Assembly (NCBI GenBank): GCA_002762795.1
Contig: PCYA01000012.1
Coordinates: 54,066-118,065, forward strand
Direction of reading: 5' to 3'
Source of the DNA: Candidatus Woesearchaeota archaeon CG10_big_fil_rev_8_21_14_0_10_37_12
Lineage (GTDB): Archaea > Nanobdellota > Nanobdellia > Woesearchaeales > ARS49
Length of the DNA stretch: 64,000 nt
The position numbers were made by a program, and so were the translations under genes. The notes below the pieces were generated by a model. That model was not told the origin of the DNA and ran no database searches. It saw only the letters and a list, made by a program, of their open reading frames with translations. Shown piece after piece: positions 21,984-64,000 of this stretch (position 1 is its first letter; each line of letters opens with the position of its first letter).

Positions 21984-22001
21984 TTTACCACCCCATGAAA
22001 C

Positions 22002-23544: not shown

Positions 23545-23559
23545 GTATTGTAACAATAC
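23545..23559. promoter_or_regulatory. 7+1+7 palindrome between the TrmB gene and the SBP gene, flanked by two TATA-like boxes
   Basis: GTATTGT-A-ACAATAC. TATA-like TTTATAAATTT (23530-23540) and TTATAAAAAA (23569-23578) flank it. Confidence 0.4.
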
Positions 23560-23597
23560 TACAAAATGTTATAAAAAATATCTTTGGCTTAACATCT

Positions 23598-25725: not shown

Positions 25726-25917
25726 CCTTTCTGACCCTGACTTGTGTTCTTTTTATTCAAGCAGCCATTTCCAAACAGGCTTAATAATGATCTTTTTACC
25801 TTCAACAATCTCTTCACCTTCCTCGTTATATGTTAGAAAAAAACTTCGTTTGATTTGACAAGTTTCTATTTGTAATGGGAATTATTGGCCTAAAATTCCT
25901 ATTCCGAATGGAGATTT

Positions 25918-26325
25918 TTAATGGGAACTTACTTTCAATTCCCTAAAACCAGTTATTTTATCAAATTCTCTGATATACTCAATATTATCAAGTTCGCCAA
26001 TAACAATTTCAGCAGTGCTGTAAATTATACAATTTTCTTTTAAATGACCACCAATAGCAATTCCTTTTTTATTTGCAAGAGTTATATGAATATGATTTCC
26101 ATCTGCTGATAACGTTCCAGAAAGACCAGTAATTTCAAACTTTTCATTAAATGTTTTTGTAACAGACTCATCTGCCAAGCGAATTGTTGCTTGTTTTAAG
26201 CTTCCCACACAAGTTAAAATAACTCCTGCCCTGATTTTTCTTTCTTGTACAAATTTTTCAATTTCAGCTTTCAAATCCTGCTCAGGAACCAATCTTAACG
26301 TATGTATTTCACTTAATTTTGTCAT
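25918..26325 (-). CDS. PPC (DUF296) domain protein
   Basis: ILTCVGSLKQATIRL ... GLSGTLSADGNHIHITLANKKGIAIGGHL matches the PPC/PCC fold pattern. Confidence 0.6.
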   Translation of the reverse strand: MTKLSEIHTLRLVPEQDLKAEIEKFVQERKIRAGVILTCVGSLKQATIRLADESVTKTFNEKFEITGLSGTLSADGNHIHITLANKKGIAIGGHLKENCIIYSTAEIVIGELDNIEYIREFDKITGFRELKVSSH

Positions 26326-26415
26326 ATGCTCATTTCAAATTTATTCTATTTAACCCTTTCTGAACCAAAACTTAATAAAAACACTCAACTAAACAACCAG
26401 TAAAGAGGTGAACAC

Positions 26416-26673
26416 ATGGCAAAACATGCAAAACTTCACGTTATCAGCTTTGGACTTGCACTCGGAATTATCTGCGCAATAGCAATATTCTTAACAGGAA
26501 CACTTGCTGGCATATTCCAAAAAGGATTCCCAATCGTTAACGCAATCGCAGAATGGTACATTGGTTACGCACCAACACTACTTGGAAGCATCATCGGTGC
26601 AATGTATGCATTTGTAGACGGATTTATAGGCGGAACATTATTTGCATGGATTTACAACAAACTGCAAAACTGA
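26416..26673 (+). CDS. small membrane protein (2-3 TM)
   Basis: 85-aa hydrophobic ORF with GAGGTGA upstream. Confidence 0.5.
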   Translation: MAKHAKLHVISFGLALGIICAIAIFLTGTLAGIFQKGFPIVNAIAEWYIGYAPTLLGSIIGAMYAFVDGFIGGTLFAWIYNKLQN

Positions 26674-26674
26674 T

Positions 26675-27532
26675 ATGCAAAACTGGCTATTACTGGGACT
26701 CATCGGATACTTATTTTATGCCATCTCAACAACTATTGACAAATACATTCTCAAACACAAATTTGGATTTGTTCGCATGGAAGCATTCAAAATGTTTTTT
26801 GACGGAATGGTGTTGCTCATTATTGGCATCATCTTTTTTGATCTTTCACTTAACAAAGAATTATTGTACTGGACAATACCCTTAGGAGCAGTTAACGCAG
26901 GAGCAGGACTCTTCTATTACAAAGCATTACAACAAAGAGACTCAGAAGAAATAACACCAGCACACAGATCAGGATCAATACTCTTGGTCTTTCTTGCATC
27001 CATACTATTCTTATCAGAAACAATACATCCTGCCAACTATCTTGGACTAATACTCTTGCTTGCCGGAATTTATGTAATTCGTTCAAAAGACGGATTTCAC
27101 TTTCCACCTATAGACAAAGTGTTTGTTCTTGTCATGCTTGTTGTATTTTTTGACGTTATTTATGCACTAACTGCAAAACAAGCACTCGCAACAATACAAC
27201 CAATAAACCTTGCAATACTCATGTACTTCATGACAGCACTCACAGTTATTATTTACGACACACTGAACAAAAAACACAGACTGAACCACTTTTACCACTT
27301 CAGAAAAAACATCAAACTAACATCATTCTCAGCACTATTTGCAGCAACAGGAACGCTCCTCATATACACTGCTCTAACATACGGAAACGCATCACAAGTA
27401 TTCCCACTAGCTGCAGCAGAACCAGCAGTTCTATTCATTTTTGCAACAATTTTTCTAAAAGAACAATTCTCATGGCACAGACTATTAGGAACACTTTTTG
27501 TACTTGCAGGCATTATTTTTGTAGCTATATGA
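26675..27532 (+). CDS. EamA/DMT-family transporter
   Basis: About 10 TM segments in a two-repeat organisation. The ATG at 26675 lies 1 nt after the upstream stop. Confidence 0.65.
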   Translation: MQNWLLLGLIGYLFYAISTTIDKYILKHKFGFVRMEAFKMFFDGMVLLIIGIIFFDLSLNKELLYWTIPLGAVNAGAGLFYYKALQQRDSEEITPAHRSGSILLVFLASILFLSETIHPANYLGLILLLAGIYVIRSKDGFHFPPIDKVFVLVMLVVFFDVIYALTAKQALATIQPINLAILMYFMTALTVIIYDTLNKKHRLNHFYHFRKNIKLTSFSALFAATGTLLIYTALTYGNASQVFPLAAAEPAVLFIFATIFLKEQFSWHRLLGTLFVLAGIIFVAI

Positions 27533-27578
27533 CTCCCAAAACATAAAGTAATTAAATACCATTCAAATAACAAACAAT

Positions 27579-27896
27579 ATGATTCTAACAACAACGCCGG
27601 ATTTGCCTGGAAAGAAAATCAAAGAAGTACTAGGATTAGTCAAAGGCAACACTGTCCGCGCAAAACACATTGGCAGAGACATACTTGCAGGACTAAAACA
27701 ACTCGTCGGCGGAGAAATTAAAAGTTACACAGACATGATTACTGAAGCACGCGAAGAAGCACTCAAACGCATGGAACAAGACGCAAAGAAAAAAGGCGCA
27801 AATGCAGTTGTGAACGTTCGCTTTGTCACAGCAGAAGTCATGCCAGGAGCAGCCGAAGTACTAGCGTATGGGACTGCGGTTAAATTAGGAAAATGA
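27579..27896 (+). CDS. YbjQ/UPF0145-family protein
   Basis: TTTPDLPGKKIKEVLGLVKGNTVRAKHIGRDILAGLKQLVGGEI...GANAVVNVRF is highly typical of the family. Confidence 0.8.
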   Translation: MILTTTPDLPGKKIKEVLGLVKGNTVRAKHIGRDILAGLKQLVGGEIKSYTDMITEAREEALKRMEQDAKKKGANAVVNVRFVTAEVMPGAAEVLAYGTAVKLGK

Positions 27897-28646
27897 TCAT
27901 GGCTTTGCAATCTTCCAAGTAGCATAAAAATAATTCCTGAAATTATCCGCAACGTCTTTTGACTGGATTAAAATACCAATTGGTTTATCACTCCAAGAAA
28001 TGATTAGGACTTTGTCGTTAAGAATATCAATATTTCCTGGAACTGGATAATTTACATACCTCTCATCAACCCAAGAAGGATAGTTTTTTGTCATCTCAGC
28101 ACCTTTATGTTCTCTATTTGCAATCCCTAACGCTTTAATTTCGATCTTGCTCATCCACGTCCATGTTTTTCCATAAAAAATAGTTGCTGGTTCAATGTAT
28201 TTTGGGCTGCTCATGTAAAAATAAAGATCAATATCTTCTTTTTTTGCATCTTTCAATAATATCTTGTACGCGGTTGTAATGCCTTTCATACCAACAAAAA
28301 CTTCAGCATCTAATTTGCTGCCAGTCAAAGCCTTAATGTTTTCCAACGAAGGCAAAATATTCGTAAGAGCTTTTTTACTTCTCTCGATTTCCTCTTCCTT
28401 CTTATCAAGAAATTCTTGTAATCTTGATGGTTCGACAGCCTGAAAAATCTTGGTTTTTTCTCTTGTAATAAAACTCACAAGACCCTTCTCAGTTAACCTT
28501 TGCAACACTTCATAAATATTAGAATATGCAATTCCAGACTTTTTAACAATAGGACCAACTTTTGACGCACCAATAACAATTAATGCTTCATAAACTTTCG
28601 CTTCTCCGTCAGTTAAACCAAATTGCTGCAATTCTCTTTCAAACAT
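27897..28646 (-). CDS. TrmB-family transcriptional regulator
   Basis: FGLTDGEAKVYEALIVIGASKVGPIVKKSGIAYSNIYEVLQRLTEKGLV. Confidence 0.75.
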   Translation of the reverse strand: MFERELQQFGLTDGEAKVYEALIVIGASKVGPIVKKSGIAYSNIYEVLQRLTEKGLVSFITREKTKIFQAVEPSRLQEFLDKKEEEIERSKKALTNILPSLENIKALTGSKLDAEVFVGMKGITTAYKILLKDAKKEDIDLYFYMSSPKYIEPATIFYGKTWTWMSKIEIKALGIANREHKGAEMTKNYPSWVDERYVNYPVPGNIDILNDKVLIISWSDKPIGILIQSKDVADNFRNYFYATWKIAKP

Positions 28647-28741
28647 GCTTTTGATTTGCTTATTTTCTATAAAAATCTTGTGTTATATACCCTGTACAAG
28701 GGTGATGAATTATAAAAATTAGTTGTTACTTTTTGGTAGCA

Positions 28742-29812
28742 ATGAAACAAATAATTGTTGCTACGAGCATTTTGCTCTTACTACTTTCCTGCACGATAAC
28801 AGGGCAGACAACGCTAGAAACAGAAAATATCCCAATCGGAGGACTTTTTTCCTTAACAGGCGACGGTGCAAGCTGGGGAGGTGATGAACTCAAAGCAGTG
28901 CAGCTTGTTATAGATGAAACAAATGAAGAAGGAGGAATAGATAGAAAACAAATTGATTTTGTATTTGAAGATGCAAAAACAACATCACGAGATGCAGTTA
29001 CAGCATATAATGCACTAAAAAGCAAAGCGGATGTTACTGTTGTTATTGGCAGCACATGGGAACAAACAACAGAACCAATAGCACCACTTGCAGAACAAGA
29101 TCAAATAGTCCTAATATCGCCAAGCATATCTGGAGTTATTGAAGATGACAAGAATTATAACTACTTGTTTACAACATGGTACTCAGAACTTTCTGGAACT
29201 AAACGCGTTTTGCAAGAAATGAACAAACAAAACATTGGACGCGCAGTCATAATTCACAATACAGGCATCTGGCCAACATTTGTGAGCAATTTATTTGAAA
29301 AACACTCGGAAGAATACAACATAGAAGTGTTACAAGCAAAAGAAATGAAACCAGATGCAATATACACAGGCTTCTCACTAGATGAATACTTACAGTCATT
29401 CATGAAACAAGCACAAGAGTTAGGATTAACTGTCCCAATATACAGTGCATCTGCGACAGAAAACGAACTTTTGCTTGAATGGTATGGACAATACAAATAT
29501 GGAGTCTATCATCCAGTGCCAAAAATAACTGAAAGACATACAGAGTTTATTGCAAAATACAAAGCCAAATACGGAGAAGAACCAACAAGCCCATCAGCAG
29601 CACCAGCATACGACGCAGCAAAACTTGTTATTGCAGCACTCAAAGACGGAGCACGAACAGGAGAAGAAATAAAAAATTGGCTGGATAACGTACAAGACTT
29701 CCCCGGAACCGTAGTGGAAAAAATAACATTTGACGAAAAAGGACTACTGGATGTAGGAACAGACGCATTTGTCATCAGAACAGTCAAAAACAGAACATTC
29801 AAAGACATATAG
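28742..29812 (+). CDS. ABC substrate-binding lipoprotein, LivK/PBP1-like (paralog 4)
   Basis: MKQIIVATSILLLLLSC lipobox. TATA-like AATTATAAAAATT is centred ~27 nt upstream of the ATG at 28742. IPIGGLFSLTGDGASWG block present. Confidence 0.75.
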   Translation: MKQIIVATSILLLLLSCTITGQTTLETENIPIGGLFSLTGDGASWGGDELKAVQLVIDETNEEGGIDRKQIDFVFEDAKTTSRDAVTAYNALKSKADVTVVIGSTWEQTTEPIAPLAEQDQIVLISPSISGVIEDDKNYNYLFTTWYSELSGTKRVLQEMNKQNIGRAVIIHNTGIWPTFVSNLFEKHSEEYNIEVLQAKEMKPDAIYTGFSLDEYLQSFMKQAQELGLTVPIYSASATENELLLEWYGQYKYGVYHPVPKITERHTEFIAKYKAKYGEEPTSPSAAPAYDAAKLVIAALKDGARTGEEIKNWLDNVQDFPGTVVEKITFDEKGLLDVGTDAFVIRTVKNRTFKDI

Positions 29813-46143: not shown

Positions 46144-46152
46144 TTTATATAT
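46144..46152 (+). promoter_or_regulatory. TATA-like box positioned for a leaderless transcript starting at the cysS leader mini-ORF
   Basis: TTTATATAT is centred ~26 nt upstream of the ATG at 46174. Confidence 0.5.
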
Positions 46153-46173
46153 TTCAGGCATACTTTAATTTTT

Positions 46174-46215
46174 ATGCAAACACAAACTAAAAACGTAAAA
46201 TGTTGTTGTTGCTAG
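46174..46215 (+). CDS. candidate leader peptide MQTQTKNVKCCCC upstream of cysS
   Basis: ATG CAA ACA CAA ACT AAA AAC GTA AAA TGT TGT TGT TGC TAG: four consecutive Cys codons directly before the stop, 75 nt upstream of the cysS ATG. Confidence 0.65.
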   Translation: MQTQTKNVKCCCC

Positions 46216-46242
46216 TTCTTAGACCATACATAAAATTCACTG

Positions 46243-46253
46243 TTTTTCTTTTT
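46243..46253 (+). terminator. T5-C-T5 tract between the leader mini-ORF and cysS (candidate regulated terminator)
   Basis: TTTTTCTTTTT. Oligo-T is the archaeal intrinsic termination signal. Confidence 0.4.
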
Positions 46254-46290
46254 GCCAAGATTAATAAACACATAATGAGGTACGAGTAAC

Positions 46291-49062: not shown

Positions 49063-50088
49063 TTATTTTTTCTCTGATTTAAGTTGATTGTAAATTCCAT
49101 CACTAAACTGTTTCCAATAATGAACTTTATCCTGAACCAATAAATCATAATGAACAATATACGGACCAATATCTTTTTTGAACAACTCTATGCTATCATT
49201 TAATTCTTTTGGATTGCGTGCATTAAGATAAAGCAACAAATCGTAATTTCCTAACGTGTTCCCTGCATAAAAAATATTTCTGAGTTGTTGAAAAGGTTTT
49301 TTTCTAATGTTTAAAGGAGTATCTTGAATTAACCTGACAAGAATATAGTATGTTACAAATCCAAGCTCAGAAAGATTTGGAATACCTCCAAAACTTAATA
49401 TTATTTTATTTTTAATAAGATTATTGATTTTTCTTTTAACTGTTTGTCTATCTATTTTTAACATTTTAGACATACTAATCAGAGATTCATTTGGATTGTC
49501 TGCTAGCACTTTAAGAATTTCAACTTCATAACTTGTTGGAGAATATATATTAAATTCTCTATCAACAGGAAATTTTCGCGTAGTAAGCATACTACTGAAT
49601 GAATGGTCGGATTTTTTCTCGAATTTAGTTCCTAAATCCAAAACTGGATTAAGCTGAGTAAATTCAAAATCTGAGATGTGCGTGAGCATAATGTAATCTT
49701 TTACTTTATTATTACATAATACAAACAACTCTTGACGTATTTTATCCAAATGAAAACTATTAGTTGCATCAACAATTATTTGAATGTCAAAACGACCTAT
49801 GAACGTGTTTATCCACATTACAAACTCGTGTTTTCTTAAGAGATCATAGATTTTTTCTTTGTTATCAAGACCTTCTTCAAATTGTAATAACAAATGATAT
49901 CTTGTGAAACCTAGCTTTCTAGCATCAATAAAAAGAACATATTGGCTTAGAACATCTGCTTTTTCTAACTGTTTTATTTTATACGCAACGGTATCTTTTG
50001 AAACATTAAGAGCTTTTGCTAAAGTTGTATGGGCTATTCTGCAATTCTGCGCCAACACCTCCATTATTTGCAAGTCCCTTTTATCCAT
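49063..50088 (-). CDS. tandem-duplicated Lrp/AsnC-type regulator (two HTH plus two ligand-domain repeats)
   Basis: The first repeat is DLQIMEVLAQNCRIAHTTLAKALNVSKDTVAYKIKQL and the second is EVEILKVLADNPNESLISMSKMLKIDRQTVKRKINNL. TATA-like TTTATATAG lies ~27 nt upstream of the ATG at 50088. Confidence 0.7.
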   Translation of the reverse strand: MDKRDLQIMEVLAQNCRIAHTTLAKALNVSKDTVAYKIKQLEKADVLSQYVLFIDARKLGFTRYHLLLQFEEGLDNKEKIYDLLRKHEFVMWINTFIGRFDIQIIVDATNSFHLDKIRQELFVLCNNKVKDYIMLTHISDFEFTQLNPVLDLGTKFEKKSDHSFSSMLTTRKFPVDREFNIYSPTSYEVEILKVLADNPNESLISMSKMLKIDRQTVKRKINNLIKNKIILSFGGIPNLSELGFVTYYILVRLIQDTPLNIRKKPFQQLRNIFYAGNTLGNYDLLLYLNARNPKELNDSIELFKKDIGPYIVHYDLLVQDKVHYWKQFSDGIYNQLKSEKK

Positions 50089-50193
50089 ATTTCGCATAAT
50101 GTTGTTTTTACTATATAAATATGCTACTTTTTTCTTATTTTGTATTGAATTATTTATTATATTGTTTTATCTTTATTTTTCTTAGTGATAACA

Positions 50194-50859
50194 ATGAAAA
50201 TACAAGCGACGCAAGGAGAACTATTTGACAACAGCAAAAAACTACAAAAAAACAGTGGAGCAGCGATAATATGGATGAGTGTTGGAAACAGTTACTTCAA
50301 AAGAGAAACCATTACTCAACTTATTAAATTTGCTTCAACCAACTTTTCAAAAGTATTTGTATTAATGCCTGACAAACCAGCTGTACACACATACAAAGCA
50401 ATAGGCTATTCACAAAATAAAGCAGAGAAAAAAGCCAGATTAACTGGCAATAACCTAAAAAATCACGCTCTGCACGCTATTCAAACTACAAAAACAAATA
50501 ACACGTACATTATTGATTGGCAAACTGAGATATCGACAAAAAATATTTATCAACAGGAATTGAAAAAAATTCATGATTTATATGAAACAAATGCTTTATT
50601 CAGACAAAAAGTTCGTAGAACAACTTGTGAAGTACTCGAAGGAAAACTAAAACCTGACGTAACTTTAACTGCTGCTATTAATGAAGGAACACACTATTTG
50701 CTTAGCGAAATAGCTTTTCTTTCAGCAAGCCCAAAAATATTAAAAATAAACAGCACAATTTACATATATCACAAAAAATGGGAAATCTATGAACAATTCA
50801 TTAAAGGAACTTTCACAGGATTGCCAAGAAATAATTTAGGATTTTTAGTTGTTAAATAA
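50194..50859 (+). CDS. tRNA-dependent cyclodipeptide synthase (CDPS), NYH-type
   Basis: IIWMSVGNSYF compares with GISxGNSYF around the catalytic Ser. KAEKKAR is present, HYLLSEIAFL matches the Y..E pair and IYIYHKKW matches the YH pair. Size ~220 aa. All recalled from AlbC/YvmC/Rv2275. Confidence 0.8.
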   Translation: MKIQATQGELFDNSKKLQKNSGAAIIWMSVGNSYFKRETITQLIKFASTNFSKVFVLMPDKPAVHTYKAIGYSQNKAEKKARLTGNNLKNHALHAIQTTKTNNTYIIDWQTEISTKNIYQQELKKIHDLYETNALFRQKVRRTTCEVLEGKLKPDVTLTAAINEGTHYLLSEIAFLSASPKILKINSTIYIYHKKWEIYEQFIKGTFTGLPRNNLGFLVVK

Positions 50860-50886
50860 ATAAAAAATAAAAAAACAAAACAGAAA

Positions 50887-51585
50887 TTACTCAGCTAGTG
50901 CTGCATCAATAACCTGCTTAAATGCTGCGAACGGTTGCGCACCAGACACTAAACGGCCGTTGATAATAAAGCCAGGAGTTCCCTGAACACCAGCAGCACT
51001 ACCATCAGCCATATCCTTTTGCACTTCATCAGCAAACTGGTCAGAATCAAGACAACTGTTAAAATCAGCGGTTTTCAAACCAAGATCTTTTGCGAACTTT
51101 TTGAACGAATCAACACCGCCAGCTACACCTGTTTCAAACAGTTTATCATGCATTTCCCAGTATTTGCCCTGTTCACCAGCACACTCAGCAGCCTCAGCAG
51201 CTTTTTGCGCTTGCGGATGGAAAGGCAAAGGATAATCTCTGTACACCAACTTTAACTTGCCGGTTTCAATGTATTCTGACTCGATTTGCGGCAATGTTTG
51301 CTCAAAAAATCGCGTACAGAACGGACATTCAAAGTCGCTAAACTCAACCATCGTTACAGGTGCATCTTCATTGCCTTTTACTGCATCATCATCAACAAGA
51401 GCAGCCATATCAATATCAGCAGGTTCTGGTACACTAGGAGCAGACGGTGTAGGTGTTGGCTGCGAAGGAGCAGCAACAGGAGCACCAAGCTTATCACTAA
51501 TAACGGTTAACTGCACAACAAGCACAATCAACAAAACTGTTTGCAGCCCAAGAAGCCACAATTTAACATCATTACTTTTTTTCAT
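50887..51585 (-). CDS. DsbA-like thioredoxin-fold oxidoreductase, membrane-anchored
   Basis: FECPFC active site, an N-terminal TM and a Pro/Ala/Ser linker. GGAGGGTGA lies 5 nt upstream of the ATG at 51585. Confidence 0.8.
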   Translation of the reverse strand: MKKSNDVKLWLLGLQTVLLIVLVVQLTVISDKLGAPVAAPSQPTPTPSAPSVPEPADIDMAALVDDDAVKGNEDAPVTMVEFSDFECPFCTRFFEQTLPQIESEYIETGKLKLVYRDYPLPFHPQAQKAAEAAECAGEQGKYWEMHDKLFETGVAGGVDSFKKFAKDLGLKTADFNSCLDSDQFADEVQKDMADGSAAGVQGTPGFIINGRLVSGAQPFAAFKQVIDAALAE

Positions 51586-51700
51586 ATATTCACCCTCCAA
51601 TACACCCAAAAAACAGTATTCTCCTTTTAAAAGATTTATGTACTGTAAAGGCAGGAAAGTCCAGTTCCAATAACTTTTTTTTTCTCGATGGATTATTAAT

Positions 51701-51790
51701 AAAGAGAGGAAAGAGGCTCTTCTGGCTTGCTACTTTAAGCGAAGTCCTCTCCTTACACCTCACCTGTGATTCTAAAATTAGAAAGCCAGA
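51701..51790 (+). ncRNA. candidate structured RNA or DNA element, copy A (stem, hairpin, pseudoknot potential)
   Basis: AAAGAGAGGA..GCTCTTCTGGCTTGC..TCCTCTCCTT..CTCACCTGTGATTCT..TAGAAAGCCAG. About 75 percent identical to 57636-57724, with compensatory changes in the inner stem. Confidence 0.4.
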
Positions 51791-51895
51791 CAGATGATTT
51801 GCGCTTTGATGTTGTTCGAACCATATGTTTTGTTGTCTCCCTTGAGTGATTTAGAAAGGAAAGAGTTATATAAGTCCTATTTAATCTTAAACGCT

Positions 51896-53296
51896 ATGAG
51901 CAAAGAATCACCGCTTGATGGATTAGTTGCAGATTTCTTACCAGAAAATGTTGGAACGTGGGCTTACAAGCGACCTGACGGAGCTACTTTACCATACGCA
52001 AAAGCAGTTCATTATTCACGAGGACAAGAAGGAAGTTCATTAACTCCAGAACAGCTTGATGAGAGAAATAACAGAGCTGCAAGAAGCGCACAAATAATTG
52101 GTGATGAGCAACTGTTACGCGCTAATGGACTATCAGTAGGACTTGCTGCAAAACTTGAAAGTGCAGATAAGGGACATACTCATCTTACATTCAAACCACC
52201 AGTGCCAATGGATGATGCACTCAGCGGAGAACAACCACCAATAACAGGACAATACCCATACGTAACATTTCCTGCACAAGGAGAAGTTCCATACGCAATT
52301 GTAGTAATGTATGAAGAAGGCGAACAATTTGGAACAGCACAAGAAATAGCAACAATAGAACTTGATAAAGACACTTGGTATTTGAGTGCGTCCCAACTAC
52401 CTGAAGACACAAAACACAAAAAAGAAATCGAACAAGCAGTAAACATATTCAGAGAACGAGGCGATAGGTGTTTACACCCCGGAACATATAAACTCAACAT
52501 TACTGTAGAAAGATCACCAGCAATAGCAATACGCATAGACGGGTACAGACCACTAACAGCACAACTATTATACGACGGACCAATAAGACAAGAAATACCA
52601 ATCGGGGGTTTACACGAAATTATCAGCAGCAGTATTGCTAAATATGTTTCAGGTATTAAAATTCCAAACGAAATGAGCCCACTCGAACAAAAACCACCAA
52701 AACAACAAACAGAAACTCCAAAACCAGAAAAAAAATTAAGACCAAAATATGCAGAAATGTCACTTGTATTGCCCAGCGATGAACCAAACAAGCCATTCGG
52801 AATGTCACAAGCAACACTTGAATATCAAGGAAGAGAAGACAGAGCAGACTTAATATACGTAGCAACAAGACGCACAGACTCAGTCGGAGAAACTGATGCA
52901 AACCCTAATTTTGGATTAGTAGAAGTACAAATAAGCCAATTTTCCAAAGTAACAAACGTAGATATTGATTACAAACCAAAAAAAATAGAAGAGCCAGAAC
53001 CACGAGAAACTACAGGTACTCCGTTAACGGGTAGCTTTTCAAGCGACAGGCCAAGATCATTTCCTTTGATGGGAGGAGGTTCTTATTCAGGTGGAAACTC
53101 TTATTTAGGCGGAGGAGGATATAGCGGTCTTCGTTCAGCTGGAGGTATTTCAGGGAATATGGGCACAAGAGGCGAAGATTTTGGAGGGGGATTTGATTGG
53201 GATAGTTTAGGCAGTCCATCAACATCACCACCATTAGTATCAACAGGCAGAACAAAACTTGGAACACCAAGAACAGGAAGTGTTTCACAAAAGTAA
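51896..53296 (+). CDS. hypothetical protein (no recognisable domain) with a Gly/Ser/Tyr-rich C-terminal tail
   Basis: Start moved to MSKESPLDG because TATA-like GTTATATAAG (51864-51873) lies ~27 nt upstream. No TM segment. The tail reads GGGSYSGGNSYLGGGGYSGLRSAGG. Confidence 0.55.
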   Translation: MSKESPLDGLVADFLPENVGTWAYKRPDGATLPYAKAVHYSRGQEGSSLTPEQLDERNNRAARSAQIIGDEQLLRANGLSVGLAAKLESADKGHTHLTFKPPVPMDDALSGEQPPITGQYPYVTFPAQGEVPYAIVVMYEEGEQFGTAQEIATIELDKDTWYLSASQLPEDTKHKKEIEQAVNIFRERGDRCLHPGTYKLNITVERSPAIAIRIDGYRPLTAQLLYDGPIRQEIPIGGLHEIISSSIAKYVSGIKIPNEMSPLEQKPPKQQTETPKPEKKLRPKYAEMSLVLPSDEPNKPFGMSQATLEYQGREDRADLIYVATRRTDSVGETDANPNFGLVEVQISQFSKVTNVDIDYKPKKIEEPEPRETTGTPLTGSFSSDRPRSFPLMGGGSYSGGNSYLGGGGYSGLRSAGGISGNMGTRGEDFGGGFDWDSLGSPSTSPPLVSTGRTKLGTPRTGSVSQK

Positions 53297-53415
53297 AAGG
53301 AACACTTGAAGCACACCTCGCAACATTCAGATTCTGTCTCACAAACGAAACAACCTAATTCCACAAACTTTTTTCTTGAGAAAAACTTAAATACTTGTAC
53401 AAAATTCCAAGCAAT

Positions 53416-53466
53416 ATGATATCACAACAACAAACAAAATCAACAGCGGTTGTTGTAGTGGTATAA
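53416..53466 (+). CDS. candidate leader peptide MISQQQTKSTAVVVVV upstream of valS
   Basis: ATG ATA TCA CAA CAA CAA ACA AAA TCA ACA GCG GTT GTT GTA GTG GTA TAA: five consecutive Val codons directly before the stop. TATA-like CTTAAATAC lies ~26 nt upstream. Confidence 0.65.
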   Translation: MISQQQTKSTAVVVVV

Positions 53467-53494
53467 GTACGCTCCTTTATTCAGGAGAACGTAC
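53467..53494 (+). promoter_or_regulatory. hairpin starting at the first nucleotide after the leader stop codon
   Basis: GTACG-CTCCT (53467-53476), loop TTATTC, then AGGAG-AA-CGTAC (53483-53494). Confidence 0.45.
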
Positions 53495-53535
53495 ACATCA
53501 ATTCTTCTGAAATACAGGAACTAACTGAGGATATT

Positions 53536-56028
53536 ATGACAGAAAAATATAACCCACACGAAGCAGAAATTAAATGGATGAACTACTGGGAAAAACAAAA
53601 CACATACAAATTTGATCCAAAAAGCAACAAGCCAGTTTACGCAATAGACACACCACCACCAACAGTATCAGGCAAAATGCACGTTGGACATTCATTCAGC
53701 TACTCACGTACAGACTTCATTGCACGATTCCACAGAATGATCGGCAAAAACGTATTCTATCCATTCGGAACAGATGACAATGGCTTAGCAACAGAAAGAC
53801 TCGTAGAAAAACTCAAAGGCGTAAACAGCAAAAAAATGAAAAGAGAAGAATTCGTAAAACTCGTACTCGAAACACTCAAAGAAATCACACCAGAATTTAT
53901 CAGCGATTGGAAACGCATAGGCGTTTGTGCAGATTATTCAATTTATTACTCTACTATTGATAATCACTGCCAAAAACTAAGCCAACTAAGCTTTATAGAT
54001 CTATACAAAAAAGGCAGAGCATACCGCGCAGAAAAACCAATCATCTTTTGCCCAAACTGCAAAACAGTCATCGCACAAGTAGAAATGGAAGACAAAGAAC
54101 TCCAAAGCACACTCAACTACATCAAAGCAAAACTCGAAGACGGCAGATACATCATCTTTGCAACAACAAGACCAGAACTCATGCCGGGCAATATTGGGTA
54201 TAGCATAGACGAGAAAGGCAAATATGTTGATGTAAAAAAAGAAAATGAAACATGGATTATTGCAGCAGACGCATACGAAAAATTCAAAGACGAATGGCAA
54301 TTGGAACAACCAAGCAAACCATACCTAGGCAAAGAATTAATTGGCAAAAAAGTAACAACACCAATCATTAACAAAACATTCACAATAACACACGACCAAA
54401 GCGTAAAAACAAACTACGGAACAGGAATAGTATACTTTTGCAGCTACGGAGGACTAGACTGCGTAGAATGGTTAACAAGACACAAAGAAGCAGAACCCAT
54501 ACACATCATGGGATTAGACGGAGTATACAATGAAAAATGCGGCGAATACCAAGGAATGAACACGCAAGAAGCACGATCAGCAATACTTGAAGACCTTGAA
54601 CAACTCAGAGTACTTATCAAAAAAGAAAAAATCAATCATACAGTAAACGTACACGAACGATGTGGAATAGAAATAGAATACATCAGCACAGCACAATGGT
54701 TCATCAAAATACTTGACCTAAAAGATGATTTGCTGAAACGAGGAAATGAACTAAACTGGCATCCAGAACACATGAAAAACAGATACGACAACTGGACAAA
54801 AGGACTACACTGGGACTGGTGCATCAGCAGACAAAGACACTACGGAATACCAATACCAGTATGGTATCACAAAAAAACAGGAGAAGTACTCATAGCAGAC
54901 GAACAAAGCATACCAATAGACCCAACAACACACAAACCACCAAAACACCTAACAGAAAACCCAGATGATTACATCGGAGAAAAAGATGTATTGGATACGT
55001 GGGCAACAAGCAGCTTAACACCACAAATCGCTATTGAACTCATTAATGATGAACACATGAAGAAAAAATTATTCCCAATGGATGTACGACCACAAGCACA
55101 CGACATCATAACATTCTGGCTATTCAACACAGTAATCAAATCACACTTGCACTACAACAAACTACCATGGAAAGACACAATCATATCAGGCTGGGTATTA
55201 GACCCAAAAGGCAGAAAAATGAGCAAAAGCAAAGGCAACATTATCGACCCAAGAGAACAAATACAAAAATACTCAGCAGATGCACTTCGCTATGCCGCAG
55301 CAAACAGCAAATTAGGACAAGACAACCCCTACAAAGAACAAGAACTCACAGCAGGAATAAAATTAACTACCAAGTTATCGAATGCAAGCAAATTTGTGTT
55401 TATGAATTTAGAAGGATACGACTTCACAGGTAAAACAATAGATGTACTAGACAAATGGATTTTAACAAAGCTTGCAAAAACAATCCACGAAACAACAATA
55501 GCATTTGAAAACTACGATTACAGCAAAGCGCGCGCATTGGCAGATGAATTTTTCTGGCACGACTTCTGCGATTATTATTTAGAACTCGTTAAAGGAAGAA
55601 TCTATGAAGGCAATGCCGAGCATAAATCAAGCGCACAAGAAACACTCTACCACTGCATGTATGCTATTCTACGATTATACGCTCCAATCATACCATTCAT
55701 CACAGAAGAACTCTATCACAAACACTTCAAAACACAAGAACAAACTGATAGTATTCATTTAACCAGTTGGCCAACACAACCTGAAATACATGAAGACGCA
55801 GAAAAAATAGGAGATACTATAGTAACAATACTCGCAGACATACGCAAAAGAAAAACAGCAGCACAAAAAGGAATGAACGCACCAATCAAAAAACTAACCA
55901 TTGAAAGCAAACTTGACTTAAGTCTGGCATTGGATGACTTGAAAGCAGCAACTTGTGCAGAAACAATTGAAATAGGAAAAGCACAAGAAGAAATTAATGA
56001 AGGATTGAAGATTAGTGTTGAATTCTGA
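53536..56028 (+). CDS. valS: valyl-tRNA synthetase
   Basis: PPPTVSGKMHVGH (HIGH region) and KMSKSKGN. 830 aa. GAGGA lies 4 nt upstream. Confidence 0.95.
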   Translation: MTEKYNPHEAEIKWMNYWEKQNTYKFDPKSNKPVYAIDTPPPTVSGKMHVGHSFSYSRTDFIARFHRMIGKNVFYPFGTDDNGLATERLVEKLKGVNSKKMKREEFVKLVLETLKEITPEFISDWKRIGVCADYSIYYSTIDNHCQKLSQLSFIDLYKKGRAYRAEKPIIFCPNCKTVIAQVEMEDKELQSTLNYIKAKLEDGRYIIFATTRPELMPGNIGYSIDEKGKYVDVKKENETWIIAADAYEKFKDEWQLEQPSKPYLGKELIGKKVTTPIINKTFTITHDQSVKTNYGTGIVYFCSYGGLDCVEWLTRHKEAEPIHIMGLDGVYNEKCGEYQGMNTQEARSAILEDLEQLRVLIKKEKINHTVNVHERCGIEIEYISTAQWFIKILDLKDDLLKRGNELNWHPEHMKNRYDNWTKGLHWDWCISRQRHYGIPIPVWYHKKTGEVLIADEQSIPIDPTTHKPPKHLTENPDDYIGEKDVLDTWATSSLTPQIAIELINDEHMKKKLFPMDVRPQAHDIITFWLFNTVIKSHLHYNKLPWKDTIISGWVLDPKGRKMSKSKGNIIDPREQIQKYSADALRYAAANSKLGQDNPYKEQELTAGIKLTTKLSNASKFVFMNLEGYDFTGKTIDVLDKWILTKLAKTIHETTIAFENYDYSKARALADEFFWHDFCDYYLELVKGRIYEGNAEHKSSAQETLYHCMYAILRLYAPIIPFITEELYHKHFKTQEQTDSIHLTSWPTQPEIHEDAEKIGDTIVTILADIRKRKTAAQKGMNAPIKKLTIESKLDLSLALDDLKAATCAETIEIGKAQEEINEGLKISVEF

Positions 56029-59719: not shown

Positions 59720-60403
59720 TTACTTACCCAAATATGCCTCTAACACGCGCTTATCTTTTTGAACTTGCTTCGGAGTGCCCCTCATCAAAACTCTGCCTTC
59801 AGCCATAACAATAACTTCATCACTAATACTCATCACAAAATCCATATCGTGCTCAATAAACATAATTGTTTTTCCTTCTTTGTTTAACTGCTTTAAAATC
59901 TTCTTCAACTCTTGACGAACACTAGGATTCACACCTGCAGTTGGCTCGTCAAGCATTAACAACTCATGCGGGTGAAGCAAAGCTCTTGCAATTTCCAACA
60001 ACCGCATCTGACCATAACTCAACGCACTCCCTTTTGTATCAATTGGTAATTTAAATGCAACCTTCTCTAACACATCCCTGATTTCTTTTTCTGAACAAGG
60101 ACGAGAAATCGTCAAATTTTCTTTAACTGTCAAATTTTTGAATAACCTCGCTTGCTGAAACGTCCTACTAATTCCAACACGCGCAATCTTGTGCGTTGGA
60201 AGCCGAGTTATGTTTTCTTTTTTGAAATAAACAGAACCATCATCAGCACTAATAATATTACAAACTAAATTAAACATAGTTGTTTTCCCCGCACCATTTG
60301 GGCCAATAACACTTGTGATCTTACCTGGCTTAATATCAAAGGAACAATCCTTTACAGCATACACGCCACCAAAATGCTTTGCAAGATTCTTAACGCGTAT
60401 CAT
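59720..60403 (-). CDS. livG: branched-chain amino acid ABC transporter ATP-binding protein LivG
   Basis: GPNGAGKTT, LSYGQMRLL and LLMLDEPT. Confidence 0.85.
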   Translation of the reverse strand: MIRVKNLAKHFGGVYAVKDCSFDIKPGKITSVIGPNGAGKTTMFNLVCNIISADDGSVYFKKENITRLPTHKIARVGISRTFQQARLFKNLTVKENLTISRPCSEKEIRDVLEKVAFKLPIDTKGSALSYGQMRLLEIARALLHPHELLMLDEPTAGVNPSVRQELKKILKQLNKEGKTIMFIEHDMDFVMSISDEVIVMAEGRVLMRGTPKQVQKDKRVLEAYLGK

Positions 60404-61257
60404 GAAAAATCCACCTTCCCAAACAAACCTTTCGGCCTGTAAATTAATATGAGCAATAAGATCAGTGCAAAAATCATTTCCCGCATCGGACCAAGCACAG
60501 AACTTGGGAACCCAATAAATCTGAGGGGTTCAGGAATTAAGAACAAAACAATCGTACCAATAGCAGAACCTTTCACAGACGCAAGACCACCAACAATCAA
60601 CATACTAAACATCAAAATCAAATCATTAATGCCAAAAATAGATGGATCAATAAACGTAATGTAATGCGCAAACAAACCACCAGCAAAACCAGCAAACAAC
60701 GCAGAAAAACCCAACATCAACGCCTTATGTGCGAACGTATTCTTGCCAAGCATTTTCGCAGCAAGCTCATCATCACGAATTGCTTCACAAGTTAACCCAA
60801 ACCGCGATCTGGAGATGTACCACATCGCTAAATAGCTTACCACTGCAAGGACCACAACAACAAACAAAAACTCAGTGTTTCCTTTCACAATCTTAGGAAT
60901 GCCTGGAATGCCTAACGCGCCTCTTGTCACATCAGTCCAATTTCGCGCAACACTGCCGAGAATAAAAGTAAATCCTAATGTGGCTAAAGCGAGATAGTCA
61001 CCTTTTAATCGTGTTGTAGGCATTGCAAGAATAATGCCCATTACCATTGCAGCCAACGCTCCAAGAGGAATGCTAATCCATAACGAAACACCCTGCACAG
61101 CTAACAACGCACTCACATATGCACCAATACCAAAAAATCCAACATGACCAAGATTCAACAAGCCAGTGAAACCCACTGCGAGATTCAATGAAAAGGTTAC
61201 AATACTATAAATTCCTATGAGAATTGCCAAATGAATCACATAATTAATGAACGCCAT
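60400..61257 (-). CDS. livM: branched-chain amino acid ABC permease LivM
   Basis: GLLNLGHVGFFGIGAY is the typical LivM block. 4-nt overlap with livG. Confidence 0.85.
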   Translation of the reverse strand: MAFINYVIHLAILIGIYSIVTFSLNLAVGFTGLLNLGHVGFFGIGAYVSALLAVQGVSLWISIPLGALAAMVMGIILAMPTTRLKGDYLALATLGFTFILGSVARNWTDVTRGALGIPGIPKIVKGNTEFLFVVVVLAVVSYLAMWYISRSRFGLTCEAIRDDELAAKMLGKNTFAHKALMLGFSALFAGFAGGLFAHYITFIDPSIFGINDLILMFSMLIVGGLASVKGSAIGTIVLFLIPEPLRFIGFPSSVLGPMREMIFALILLLILIYRPKGLFGKVDFS

Positions 61258-62130
61258 TTATGCCTCCCTCACTTTCTTACCAAGCAAACCAGACGGTTTG
61301 AACAACAGGAAAATGAATAATAGTACAAATGCAATCGCATCTTTATAACCAGAAGGCAACCACCAAATACCAATGTTTTCTACTAAACCAAGAATAAACG
61401 AGCCCAATACTGCACCTGGAATACTTGCCAAGCTCCCAATAACTGCACCAGTAAATCCTTTGATTACTAATGAAACACCCATTTGAGGATAGAGATTCTG
61501 CTCGATACCTATTAACACGCCCGCAACACCTGCAAGAAAACTTCCAATAATAAACGTGTACGTGTAAATCTTCTCAGGATTAATGCCAACAGTCTGCGCA
61601 ACTTCTTTATTATCAGCAACAGCACGCATAGCCTTGCCAAGCTTTGTACACTTCATCAACCACCACAAAGCAAGCAAAAGCAAAATTGATACTACAATGA
61701 TAATAACCTGAATAAACGTAACTCTCGCACCAAGCGCATCAAACACAGGATTCACAGTAGGAACAGTCTTAACATCAGCACCCCAAATAGCAAGCACAGC
61801 AGCATTAATAAAAGTCATCAAAGCAATACTTGCAATCAACAACACTGCACTCGAAGCTTTAATCTTTCTCAACGGCTTGTACACAACCCAATTCATCACA
61901 GCACCAAACAAACTTGTCACCATAATAGCTAATACTACAGCAAGCCAAAAGTTAAGCCCAGCCATCACTGCAAAAGTATAAAGCAAATACGCACCTGTAG
62001 CAAGCACAGCACCATGCGCAAAATGCATAAACTTCGTCACACCATAAATTAACGAAAAGCCAGACGCAACTAACGCATAAATCGCCCCTGCAATAATCCC
62101 ATTCAAAATCAGTTGTGTTGCAATACTCAT
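61258..62130 (-). CDS. livH: branched-chain amino acid ABC permease LivH
   Basis: QLILNGIIAGAIYALVASGFSLIYGVTKFMHFAHG is the typical LivH N-terminus. Confidence 0.85.
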   Translation of the reverse strand: MSIATQLILNGIIAGAIYALVASGFSLIYGVTKFMHFAHGAVLATGAYLLYTFAVMAGLNFWLAVVLAIMVTSLFGAVMNWVVYKPLRKIKASSAVLLIASIALMTFINAAVLAIWGADVKTVPTVNPVFDALGARVTFIQVIIIVVSILLLLALWWLMKCTKLGKAMRAVADNKEVAQTVGINPEKIYTYTFIIGSFLAGVAGVLIGIEQNLYPQMGVSLVIKGFTGAVIGSLASIPGAVLGSFILGLVENIGIWWLPSGYKDAIAFVLLFIFLLFKPSGLLGKKVREA

Positions 62131-62546
62131 TTTAATTCTCCGCAGTATTTTGTTAATTCTCTCGTTAACTTGGGAATTTCTATTAATGCCTCATTCACGG
62201 TTTCTTTGGAAACATCATCACCATAATAATTAATACCATTTCGCAGTTTTCTATACCTATCAAACTTATTGGCTGTTGTGTCCTCAGCAAGTATTTCCTT
62301 AAGGAATGCAGCAATACAATCATGAGAATTAAATTTATACCCTTTAATAAAACCAATTGCTTCACAACACTGTCTTAAACCCTCGTATAATTCTCTGACT
62401 ATGGACTTGAACGTGCTTTCAGTTTTAGGAATTTTTGATGCAGTTAAAATTGCTTGTTGTGAAGCTTTTAATAAACTCTTTGCTCGCAATTTATCTACTG
62501 ATACTTTTTTAACAAGCTCATTTTGCAACGCGTTTTCGAACTTCAT
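62127..62546 (-). CDS. HEPN-like domain protein
   Basis: 139-aa all-helical ORF with a KFDRYRKLRNGINYYG block. 4-nt overlaps with both neighbours, and paired with an NTase gene. Confidence 0.5.
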   Translation of the reverse strand: MKFENALQNELVKKVSVDKLRAKSLLKASQQAILTASKIPKTESTFKSIVRELYEGLRQCCEAIGFIKGYKFNSHDCIAAFLKEILAEDTTANKFDRYRKLRNGINYYGDDVSKETVNEALIEIPKLTRELTKYCGELK

Positions 62547-63076
62547 GCAACCTCTAATTGTCCTGACAAGGTCATACCATTTACAATATTATTAACTAAT
62601 TCTTTATTTTTCTTCTTTGCAGTTTCCCACTGCTTTTTTGTGAACTGATGAATGCTTAACTGTTTTCCTATTTTTTTTTCATACTCGTTAAGATTTAATT
62701 TCTTTGAAATATTTGAGATAATGCAAAAGTCAACATCGCTATTTTTGTCATCTTCTGCACGAGCAAAACTTCCAAATAAGATTATTGGAGGGTATTCGTA
62801 TACTTTTTCCAAACATTCAACGATTTCTGACATCCTTAACAACTCCAAATTGTAATACAACTTTATGTTTTTATATTTTTTTGATTCCTGATTTGCAAGG
62901 AAAACTGAATAAGGCTTTCCTTTTTTCTGAACTAAAACCCCTTCTTTTAAATAATATAATATATACTTTCTGACTGTTGTATGATTGATAATTGTTTTCT
63001 TTGCAAGCTCTCGAATCAAAAACCCTTGATTGGGACTTTCGAAAAAGCTCTTCAAAATGCCAATATTTACTTCCAT
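62543..63076 (-). CDS. minimal nucleotidyltransferase (MNT-like) with an N-terminal wHTH
   Basis: GSFARAEDDKNSDVDFCII is the G-S-x(n)-D-x-D NTase motif. Confidence 0.65.
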   Translation of the reverse strand: MEVNIGILKSFFESPNQGFLIRELAKKTIINHTTVRKYILYYLKEGVLVQKKGKPYSVFLANQESKKYKNIKLYYNLELLRMSEIVECLEKVYEYPPIILFGSFARAEDDKNSDVDFCIISNISKKLNLNEYEKKIGKQLSIHQFTKKQWETAKKKNKELVNNIVNGMTLSGQLEVA

Positions 63077-63117
63077 GTGGAAACTTTAATTTACGCATGT
63101 ATATAAATGTTTCCAAA

Positions 63118-64000
63118 TTACTCGGTTTCAAATTGGCTCACAATCAACGGAATAATAACATCCCCTTGCTCAGTAATACTCATTTGTTCGTACTTTCCAT
63201 CAAAAGAACCCATCGCTTTTATTTTATCTACAACAACTGCAGGATTTTCGCTATTTGATTGTGCAATAACGTTCACCATTAACTCAATACTACCATAGGA
63301 AACAGGGTGAAATTGCACAGGCTCTTTGTTAAACTTTGCTTTAAATTTCTCAGCAAAACCATCATAACTTGTAAAATGTGAATAAGGATAATCAACAGAA
63401 TAAACACCATCAACAAGCGCTCCTAGCGTGTACAGTTTCATAATTGGAAAAGCAATACCAACAACAAGATCGCCTTTGAAATTCAACTCTCTTGTTTGCC
63501 TTATTGCCAAAGGAACTGCAGGACCAAAACCGCCAATCACAAAAACATCAACATCATTTGTTAATTTTGTAATTTCAGAACGCAAATCAACAGCAGTCAA
63601 ATCATACAACTCGCTTTTAACTTCAACACTTGATGCTTTGAGATTTCTTGTCAATTCATCATTAAAAACTCTTCCGTAATCATCATCACCAGAAAGAATA
63701 CTGACTTTTTTTGCGCTTAGCTCAATAATTTTATCAGCCAATATTCTTGCTTCATCAGGCGCAACATTTGAATGACGCAAAACAAAATCAGCATTATCAG
63801 TTATTTGCGGATGGGCTGCATCAGCAAACAAAAGAACACTGTTTTTTTCAGCAACAGGCTTTAAAGCCAAAGCATGAGAACTTGTAATTGTTGCAAAAAA
63901 TTTGATGTTGTCAACACTAATCATTTTTTGCATTGCAGACACAGCACGCTTCGGATCAGAAGCAGTATCCTCAACAACCAACTCAATTTGTTTATCAAGA
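63118..64000 (-). CDS. ABC substrate-binding protein, LivK/PBP1-like (paralog 5); 5-prime end lies beyond the right window edge
   Basis: The ORF-track M at 63981 is a TTG inside an open frame (..IELVVEDTASDPKRAV). FATITSSHALA and VFVIGGFGP blocks are present. Confidence 0.75.
   Translation of the reverse strand, partial: LDKQIELVVEDTASDPKRAVSAMQKMISVDNIKFFATITSSHALALKPVAEKNSVLLFADAAHPQITDNADFVLRHSNVAPDEARILADKIIELSAKKVSILSGDDDYGRVFNDELTRNLKASSVEVKSELYDLTAVDLRSEITKLTNDVDVFVIGGFGPAVPLAIRQTRELNFKGDLVVGIAFPIMKLYTLGALVDGVYSVDYPYSHFTSYDGFAEKFKAKFNKEPVQFHPVSYGSIELMVNVIAQSNSENPAVVVDKIKAMGSFDGKYEQMSITEQGDVIIPLIVSQFETE

Follow-up and report, generated by a model that had tools for sequence, protein, structure and literature searches.

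A leaderless mini-ORF ending in five valine codons is a probable cis-regulatory leader of valS in a Woesearchaeota-like archaeon

In a 64,000-nt stretch of DNA from a Candidatus Woesearchaeota archaeon (contig PCYA01000012.1; the whole stretch is referred to below as the window), valS, the gene for valyl-tRNA synthetase (ValRS), is preceded by a 16-codon open reading frame (ORF) whose last five sense codons all specify valine. Our analysis suggests that this mini-ORF is probably a functional cis-regulatory leader ORF (an upstream ORF, or uORF) of the valS mRNA, which would read Val-tRNAVal and set valS expression. The initial annotation had proposed a charged-tRNA-sensing leader peptide regulating an aminoacyl-tRNA synthetase (aaRS) gene in an archaeon, and this proposal is supported by the TATA box geometry, the Shine-Dalgarno (SD) motif of valS, the two cognate runs in the window and the recurrence of such mini-ORFs before valS elsewhere. 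The window is AT-rich (36% G+C), the nearest named proteins for its valS and cysS products belong to Candidatus Woesearchaeota or Nanoarchaeia, and judged by sequence the source organism is a DPANN, Woesearchaeota-like archaeon. The 830-aa product of valS is a class I synthetase with the domains of ValRS (Pfam tRNA-synt_1, 2.6e-91; ValRS-type anticodon-binding domain Anticodon_1, 4.9e-40), and its homologues carry the name valine--tRNA ligase, Candidatus Woesearchaeota.

The mini-ORF reads ATG ATA TCA CAA CAA CAA ACA AAA TCA ACA GCG GTT GTT GTA GTG GTA TAA, as had been annotated, and encodes MISQQQTKSTAVVVVV; the coordinates of this and other features are collected in Table 1. Three kinds of Val codon are indeed used in the run (GTT twice, GTA twice and GTG once). 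The TATA-like motif CTTAAATAC was found where it had been described, the 8-mer TTAAATAC within it ends 21 nt before the mini-ORF ATG, and an A-rich stretch resembling a B recognition element (GAAAAA, 53380-53385) lies directly 5' of it. In a promoter survey of the window, every TATA-like 8-mer in non-coding DNA was paired with the ATGs located 14-29 nt downstream. For 15 ordinary window genes the 8-mer ended 19-23 nt before the ATG, which is the signature of leaderless transcripts, and the spacings of the Val mini-ORF (21 nt) and of a second mini-ORF upstream of cysS (22 nt, see below) were within this range. The predicted transcription start site (TSS) is about 22 nt past the TATA box of this promoter (P1), which would place the mRNA 5' end at or beside the mini-ORF AUG, and the sequence supports this placement. 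Promoter geometry and synonymous codon variation also support translation of the mini-ORF as a leaderless ORF.

A separate SD motif, GAGGA, and the ATG of valS were both confirmed at their annotated positions, and the gap between the mini-ORF stop and this ATG is 69 nt. In other Woesearchaeota, the relatives of valS lack an SD and are leaderless; CTTTAAATAC precedes their start at the same distance. Among DPANN valS loci, an SD motif was present in nine out of ten that bear a leader (described below) but in only 12 out of 79 others (Fisher P = 4e-6). The presence of an SD in leader-bearing valS genes, unlike in leaderless relatives, indicates that the mini-ORF and valS share a transcript; it is good indirect, sequence-level evidence of co-transcription, and translation of valS from its own SD on that transcript is likewise supported. 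The mini-ORF happens to share its reading frame with valS, and the interval 53467-53535 consists of 23 sense codons free of stops. Readthrough of the TAA, which would produce an N-terminally extended ValRS, was considered and rejected, as the cysS leader runs into an in-frame stop after six codons, and in 7 of the 11 loci described below the mini-ORF and the main gene are in different frames. The shared frame was judged coincidental because the chance of 23 stop-free codons at this composition is about 0.2 and other loci differ.

Additional TATA-like motifs were seen close to the main aaRS starts. In the window, a weak one (CTGAAATAC) is found before valS and another (TTAATAAA, 46261-46268) is located 22 nt before the cysS ATG. 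In a leader-bearing locus of another genome (L087), a canonical TATA box (TTTTATATA) lies downstream of the mini-ORF, 25 nt before the valS ATG (1467-1500). Such motifs may represent a second promoter (P2) or a remnant of an ancestral leaderless promoter.

The probability of such an arrangement was estimated with a first-order Markov model of the intergenic DNA of the window, using 200,000 simulated sequences per test. An ATG mini-ORF containing five consecutive Val codons appeared in one out of 200,000 sequences of 240 nt (~5e-6), one containing four Val codons in 18 out of 200,000, and one containing four Cys codons in 2 out of 200,000 sequences of 181 nt (~1e-5). A chance origin of the mini-ORF is excluded. 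In all six frames of the window, we counted two runs of at least four Val and three of at least four Cys; one of the two Val runs is this leader and the other is inside a membrane protein. Only two aaRS genes, cysS and valS, are present among the annotated ORFs of the window, and both are preceded by a mini-ORF with a cognate run at the leaderless position. A search of approximately 600 kb of archaeal loci for TATA-positioned mini-ORFs with a run of at least four residues returned the CCCC (cysS) and VVVVV (valS) cases; the other matches in that set were a spurious antisense IIII inside the valS of one locus (L045) and an LLLL in a bacterial locus included in the set (L014).

The parallel that had been drawn between the valS and cysS leaders was borne out: the cysS leader encodes MQTQTKNVKCCCC, has the TATA box TTTATATA and shows the same layout. 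Common origin of the two leaders was unconvincing, since pairwise alignment revealed merely a shared promoter geometry and A/C-rich composition.

We further examined whether valS is preceded by Val-run mini-ORFs in other archaea. In a first set of approximately 76 usable upstream regions of DPANN valS loci, two had such a mini-ORF at the leaderless TATA distance (MICVVVVVA in L087 and MKTYLEMVVVF in L074). One genome per GTDB species (185,579 genomes) was then scanned with the pattern TTTAWAWA-N19-23-ATG-N3-33-(GTN)5, which gave at least 120 matches. After an in-frame filter, three archaeal mini-ORFs of no more than 10 aa were left among the matches listed: MICVVVVVA again (L233, the same genome as L087), MSGVVVVVA (L227) and MAPVVVVVRA (L216). 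A tblastn search with the window ValRS placed valS immediately downstream in these three loci and in none of the 117 other matches listed. The short bacterial ORFs with five Val codons among the matches listed were not near valS, their readable downstream ORFs had no link to valine, and they were regarded as background.

Additional leaders were found among the relatives of L227 (valS 69-95% identical), namely MSVVVVVVVA, MSRAVVVVRA, MKTVVVVVVGE, MWTEVVVVVVA and the degenerate MPIAVVAMA. In this clade of Woesearchaeota, seven loci retain the element, with runs of between two and seven Val codons and a single degenerate member; two slightly more distant loci (L328 and L329, valS 67-68% identical to that of L227) had no leader element. 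Besides the window, the leader-bearing valS loci are L087/L233, L074, L227, L216 and L323-L327. Thus, at least nine other genomes carry the leader, in three valS lineages that are at most 55% identical to each other.

The documented members, ten valS loci and the single cysS case, make up 11 elements with a common layout. All have a strong TATA box 21-25 nt before the ATG, an ORF of 9-16 codons with the run in frame and ending 0-2 codons before the stop, and a spacer of 38-145 nt to the main ATG, which is preceded by an SD in most of them. The 48 Val codons of the ten valS leaders comprise 17 GUC, 13 GUA, 10 GUU and 8 GUG, so that the first two positions are fixed while the third drifts. This is what selection on decoding predicts, and the pattern supports selection of the Val codons as codons.

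RNA folding indicated that the window leader is structured. The 145-nt RNA starting at 53416 folded at -29.7 kcal/mol (z = -3.2), and none of 200 shuffled sequences folded as well. The complementarity that had been described within the mini-ORF is exact: ACAACAAC (53424-53431) is the reverse complement of GTTGTTGT (53449-53456). In hairpin 1, nt 4-17 are joined to the Val codons, with -13.3 kcal/mol for this hairpin alone. The second annotated hairpin, GTACGCTCCT / AGGAGAACGTAC, was also recovered and starts at the first base past the TAA; it pairs an anti-SD-like CUCCU with an SD-like AGGAG and is followed by ACAUCAAUUCUUCUG. An alternative hairpin 3, seen in the centroid and constrained folds, and hairpin 2 are mutually exclusive. 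Hairpin 1 overlaps the Val codons, and neither hairpin 2 nor hairpin 3 is tied to a terminator or an SD. No Rfam family matched at its gathering score in the window, and a search of 53300-53600 at E <= 10 yielded only noise and no T-box.

The initial annotation had also suggested that a ribosome at or near the stop codon would melt hairpin 2, whereas one stalled on the Val codons might not. We simulated the ribosome as a 28-nt footprint mask and calculated footprint-constrained partition functions for the 11 leaders. For the window leader, constrained folding agreed with the suggestion: a mask on the first Val codon kept hairpin 2, and with a mask on the last Val codon or the stop, hairpin 3 replaced it. 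The unpaired probability of the valS SD and AUG was 0.52 in the free RNA and 0.35-0.41 when the footprint covered the run or the stop. SD unmasking of the ermC type was rejected, as stalled-ribosome masks gave no consistent opening across the 11 leaders. It was also observed that the presumed mRNA 5' end, AUGAUAUC (53416-53423), is complementary to the ribosome-binding region of valS, GGAUAUUAU (53529-53537). This pairing appeared in folds with the ribosome masked on the Val run, and according to these models it could make valS initiation depend on the state of the leader, with a repressing effect.

Structural features of the other leaders were variable. In 8 out of 11 leaders, the stop codon is in the loop of a local hairpin (-8.6 to -11.9 kcal/mol) whose 5' arm consists of the last sense codons; these hairpins were modestly or weakly better than shuffled sequences (z = -0.5 to -2.0), and an ungapped alignment for covariation yielded no consensus for them. 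RNAalifold on the L227 clade recovered the stop-codon hairpin and a long-range pyrimidine:purine helix with weak covariation. By eye, a U/C-rich tract is present within approximately 35 nt past the stop in all 11 leaders; in most cases its partner is a purine-rich, SD-like tract, and the partner in L087 is the genuine SD of valS. In the L227 clade, the Val codons show complementarity to a segment lying downstream of them, with a joint change of the two sides in L323 (GUCGUCGCC:GGCGAUGAC), whereas in the window the pairing partner is the 5' part of the mini-ORF.

With regard to mechanism, we infer tRNA-charge sensing, the direction of regulation and the roles of the hairpins as follows. Because five Val codons precede the stop, the dwell time of the first ribosome would depend on Val-tRNAVal, the product of ValRS, and the position or persistence of that ribosome would then set the fate of the downstream RNA. 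Since the run abuts the stop, stalled and terminating ribosomes would cover nearly the same RNA, which points to persistence and not position as the signal. When Val-tRNAVal is ample, the ribosome would terminate and leave, hairpins 1 and 2 would form, and the bare U/C-rich spacer would be exposed to cleavage or early termination, with FttA/aCPSF1 as one possible agent. Under a shortage of Val-tRNAVal, a ribosome parked at the final Val codons beside the stop would cover or remodel hairpin 2 and the U/C-rich tract (the switch from hairpin 2 to hairpin 3) and shield the nascent RNA, and more full-length, translatable valS mRNA would result. ValRS activity would in this way be under negative feedback, much like that of tnaC or pheM-pheST. 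The U-rich nascent RNA bound by FttA lies within approximately 36 nt of the RNA 3' end or polymerase, and the authors of that work suggest that FttA polices the coupling of transcription to translation in competition with the coupled ribosome (PMC11616081); involvement of FttA at the valS leader would be pure inference by analogy. This specific mechanism of a parked ribosome excluding FttA is a candidate that we would sooner bet against than for. On a wider scale, and still a little more tentatively, portable cassettes of a TATA box and a leaderless cognate-run mini-ORF might serve ribosome-mediated attenuation of aaRS genes (valS, cysS and possibly others in the source contig) in scattered Woesearchaeota. 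In such cassettes, the first ribosome would report tRNA charging and decide synthetase transcription through its coupling to RNA polymerase and exclusion of FttA/aCPSF1, and the cassettes would have been gained, lost and possibly moved with replaced aaRS genes.

Several points weigh against a regulatory leader of this kind. First, its distribution is uneven. The closest sampled relatives (L198, L201 and L330), which are syntenic, have leaderless cysS and valS genes with no mini-ORF at either, and approximately 100 other DPANN valS loci have no Val run; given these absences, the element is dispensable and its distribution is patchy. The expectation in the initial annotation that relatives would conserve the mini-ORF or the Val run therefore held in part: it stood for the nine or more other genomes described above and not for the closest syntenic relatives. 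Second, the RNA evidence is divided. Accessibility of the valS SD and AUG under the footprint mask showed no consistent change across the 11 leaders. The cysS and L074 leaders have no significant structure (for cysS, z = +1.1 against shuffled sequences), which means that no single RNA mechanism is common to all members. There is no hairpin-plus-U-run terminator between the mini-ORF and valS (plus strand, 53250-53650), and the valS spacer has only short T tracts (TTTATT and TTCTTCT); bacterial-type terminators are not the rule in archaea. Third, the weak TATA-like motifs near the valS and cysS starts could give rise to leader-independent transcripts, and a ribosome that stalls at a long distance from the RNA polymerase ahead of it could just as well promote termination. 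Finally, the evidence is comparative and thermodynamic, with the TSS, translation of the mini-ORF and the response to valine as predictions.

Absence from L198, L201 and L330 implies that the leaders were not ancestral to this group. The cysS comparison was based on three close relatives, as a pattern scan for cysS loci in GTDB genomes gave almost solely bacterial loci (the patterns were too generic). The cysS genes of the relatives are 72-74% identical to that of the window and syntenic, in the order cysS, rsmB, UPF0113, valS. In spite of this, the window valS is only 45-48% identical to their valS; its best full-length relative is 58% identical, and one further locus (L038, JAFGSP010000024.1) is 61% identical over the first 480 residues. 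Low valS identity together with high cysS identity suggests xenologous replacement, and on this sequence comparison the window valS has probably been replaced horizontally; perhaps its leader came along with the gene. At L038 (~1338-1494), we noticed a TATA-positioned mini-ORF encoding MINMLIQSS, approximately 157 nt before an SD-led valS and with no Val run; the sequence just past it, GTTAGTAGTGGTGTG, resembles a decayed GTN repeat, and this mini-ORF may be a degenerate leader. In another locus (L092, ~1320-1470), a tRNA-like sequence, GGGGCGGTAGCTCAGTCTGGGAGAGC...TTCAAATC...CGCCCCA, with an apparent long insertion was seen just upstream of valS; ARAGORN made no tRNA call on it.

Other explanations of the element should be weighed against a charge-sensing leader. 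The strongest, although unlikely in our opinion, is that it is an enhancer based on translation coupling or reinitiation: the leaderless mini-ORF would load ribosomes, these or their small subunits would reinitiate at the SD-led valS once they have terminated, and valS output would increase with translation flux; scarce Val-tRNA would either lower the output or, by stalling, uncouple RNA polymerase and lead to FttA-type termination. This explanation agrees with the leaderless start ahead of a main ORF that has its own SD, with the stalled-ribosome folds that leave the valS SD unopened and with the ability of the 5' end AUGAUAUC, freed when a ribosome is on the run, to pair with the valS ribosome-binding site GGAUAUUAU and lower initiation. 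The T5CT5 tract 28 nt past the stop of the cysS mini-ORF is the expected termination site for an uncoupled polymerase, given the U-rich preference of FttA (PMC11616081), and a study of bacteria has put forward reinitiation at leader genes (PMC4833913). However, the gap between stop and AUG in our elements is 38-145 nt (69 nt here), compared with an upper limit for reinitiation of approximately 12 nt in the bacterial study, corresponding to the stretch covered by the ribosome downstream of the codon under translation (PMC4833913). Moreover, mere loading needs no cognate homopolymeric run. Production of less synthetase when its product is scarce would also be positive feedback, the opposite of what, to our knowledge, every characterised aaRS control system (pheST, thrS and the T-box) does.

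A much less probable explanation is that the element works as RNA only, the GUN repeats being kept for pairing and not for translation, with a structured 5' untranslated region whose ligand would be tRNAVal or a protein such as ValRS itself, on the model of thrS autoregulation. The perfect complementarity of the Val run to ACAACAAC, the stability of hairpin 1 and the greater structure of the window leader RNA compared with shuffled sequences would agree with this, and so would the complementarity of the L227-clade Val codons to downstream CGACGAC or CGACAAC, with both sides changed together in L323. On the other hand, all 11 elements have an ATG at the leaderless TATA distance, an in-frame run and a stop 0-2 codons later; the G-U-N pattern has a period of three, and its third base varies freely; in the cysS element, the run is one of Cys codons and the fold is not significant; the side on which the pairing partner lies depends on the lineage; and there is no match to an Rfam family, T-box included. 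Least credible, indeed very improbable, is a chance ORF, an independent gene for a tiny hydrophobic peptide or a relic of a horizontally acquired valS with no regulatory role: absence from the nearest relatives, the identities suggesting gene replacement (45-48% for valS, 72% for cysS) and the lack of conservation of the N-terminal peptides between lineages would suit it, but the probability of ~5e-6, the independent recurrences upstream of valS only (among the matches listed and the loci examined), a variable product of 9-16 residues that is unlikely as a functional protein and the cognate pairing twice in one window argue against it.

Table 1. Positions of the leader elements, predicted RNA structures and neighbouring genes in the window
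Feature	Position	Strand	Basis or remark
Promoter P1 (predicted), TATA box CTTAAATAC	53386..53394	+	Spacing as in leaderless genes of the window
Leaderless mini-ORF, 16 codons, MISQQQTKSTAVVVVV + TAA	53416..53466	+	Sequence, TATA spacing, recurrence before valS elsewhere
Five Val codons GTT GTT GTA GTG GTA abutting the stop; presumed stalling/sensing site	53449..53463	+	Sequence
Hairpin 1, mini-ORF 5' part AUAUCAC.ACAACA with Val codons + stop U, UGUUGU.GUGGUAU	53419..53464	+	Minimum free energy structure
Hairpin 2, GUACGCUCCU / AGGAGAACGUAC	53467..53494	+	-11.4 kcal/mol
Alternative hairpin 3, UCAGGAGAAC (53480-53489) with U/C-rich GUUCUUCUGA region (53502-53511)	53480..53511	+	-9.4 kcal/mol
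Weak TATA-like CTGAAATAC, 20 nt before valS ATG	53507..53515	+	Read from sequence
SD GAGGA of valS, 4 nt before ATG	53527..53531	+	Sequence
valS, valyl-tRNA synthetase (830 aa), presumed regulated gene	53536..56028	+	Pfam and homologue names
cysS leader element	46144..46290	+	TATA, mini-ORF, T5CT5, SD
TATA box TTTATATA of cysS leader, ends 22 nt before mini-ORF ATG	46144-46151	+	
Mini-ORF MQTQTKNVKCCCC of cysS leader	46174-46215	+	Cys codons TGT TGT TGT TGC at 46201-46212
T5CT5 of cysS leader, archaeal terminator-like tract, 28 nt past mini-ORF stop	46243-46253	+	
SD GAGGT of cysS	46277-46281	+	cysS start 46291
AsnC/helix-turn-helix regulator	49063-50097	minus	cysS-valS island
Cyclodipeptide synthase	50185-50859		Pfam CDPS 4.7e-38; cysS-valS island
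DsbA-like thioredoxin	50887-51609	minus	cysS-valS island
Gly-rich protein, 500 aa	51794-53296		No Pfam match; cysS-valS island

As for the genomic context, no aaRS gene was present in the right-hand flank, approximately 3.8 kb past the window end. Two assemblies (L037 and L202) are 100% identical to the window and therefore offer no usable strain variation. An island between cysS and valS (49063-53296) is absent from the syntenic relatives L198 and L201. Cyclodipeptide synthases use up aminoacyl-tRNAs, and it is conceivable that the one in the island is tied to special control of both flanking synthetases. Many paralogous binding proteins of the branched-chain amino-acid type (Peripla_BP_6) are encoded at 20913-29812 and 59720-64000 (continuing into L037 and L202), and a liv-like ATP-binding cassette transporter operon is located in the same regions. 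This wealth of genes is consistent with an amino-acid-importing organism; the TATA-mini-ORF scans found no run-containing mini-ORF at the Peripla_BP_6 or liv-like transporter genes.

Archaea couple transcription and translation, and their transcription terminates via oligo-U tracts and FttA. A natural leader ORF with cognate codons would thus be a test system for control by the lead ribosome in archaea and for the model of mutual exclusion between ribosome and FttA. DPANN archaea depend on hosts and are presumed to lack the synthesis of most amino acids, and the elements suggest how their cells could tune single synthetases to the supply of single amino acids. The signature (a TATA box, approximately 22 nt, an ATG and then up to about 16 codons, the last of which form a run from a single codon family beside the stop) can be searched for in all archaeal genomes.

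Finally, we compared the element with known systems. Leader-peptide transcription attenuators include trpL, hisL, pheL, leuL, thrL and ilvL/ivbL; the ilvL/ivbL leaders use Val codons, and in Escherichia coli the pheM leader peptide and attenuator control an aaRS operon, pheST. Like this pheM/trpL type, for which comparative work is available (PMC1262725, PMC2965389), the window element has a very short 5'-leader ORF rich in codons of the amino acid handled by the downstream gene, and that gene charges the same amino acid (ValRS here, and CysRS after the Cys run). By analogy, charged tRNA would be sensed through ribosome speed. In contrast with this type, the host is an archaeon, the leader ORF is leaderless (a TATA box and no SD) and its cognate run abuts the stop; moreover, there is no terminator of a GC hairpin plus U run, archaeal termination working differently, and the members share no conserved set of alternative hairpins. 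On two counts, the terminator and an SD-led leader ORF, the element thus falls outside the bacterial attenuators.

In the tna operon of E. coli, the leader tnaC acts through a ribosome that is arrested as it reaches the end of this ORF and then hides the Rho site beside the stop codon. The window element resembles it in the presumed stall site, which is the very last part of the leader ORF, beside the stop, and in the unstructured pyrimidine-rich tract that comes next, followed by a long spacer to the regulated gene (69 nt here); by analogy, a factor-dependent terminator is plausible (FttA, PMC11616081). However, tnaC arrest needs free tryptophan and the nascent peptide, and not codon starvation. 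The translational attenuation leaders ermCL, cat and cmlA (PMC5499644) similarly consist of a short leader ORF followed by hairpins, one of which pairs CUCCU (anti-SD-like) with AGGAG (SD-like). Unlike in the ermCL type, the SD of the window valS is located 40 nt beyond hairpin 2 and simulated stalled ribosomes do not expose it; in addition, the erm and cat leaders sense drugs and not tRNA charging.

The T-box, an untranslated RNA of 200-300 nt that binds tRNA directly, precedes aaRS genes of Firmicutes, valS among them (cited in PMC1262725). The window leader shares with the T-box its presumed input (charging of the cognate tRNA) and its target (an aaRS gene), but it is predicted to be translated and has no match to the T-box covariance model. 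Charged-tRNA sensing by leader peptides is a textbook bacterial mechanism, and the statement in the initial annotation that this regulatory class has been characterised mainly in bacteria agreed with a full-text literature search, in which no archaeal precedent and no description of an amino-acid-specific leader ORF in archaea was found; hits that had seemed pertinent turned out not to be. As a probable valS leader, the element is therefore an instance of a known logic in a new domain of life, with no classical terminator and with a distinct, leaderless architecture.

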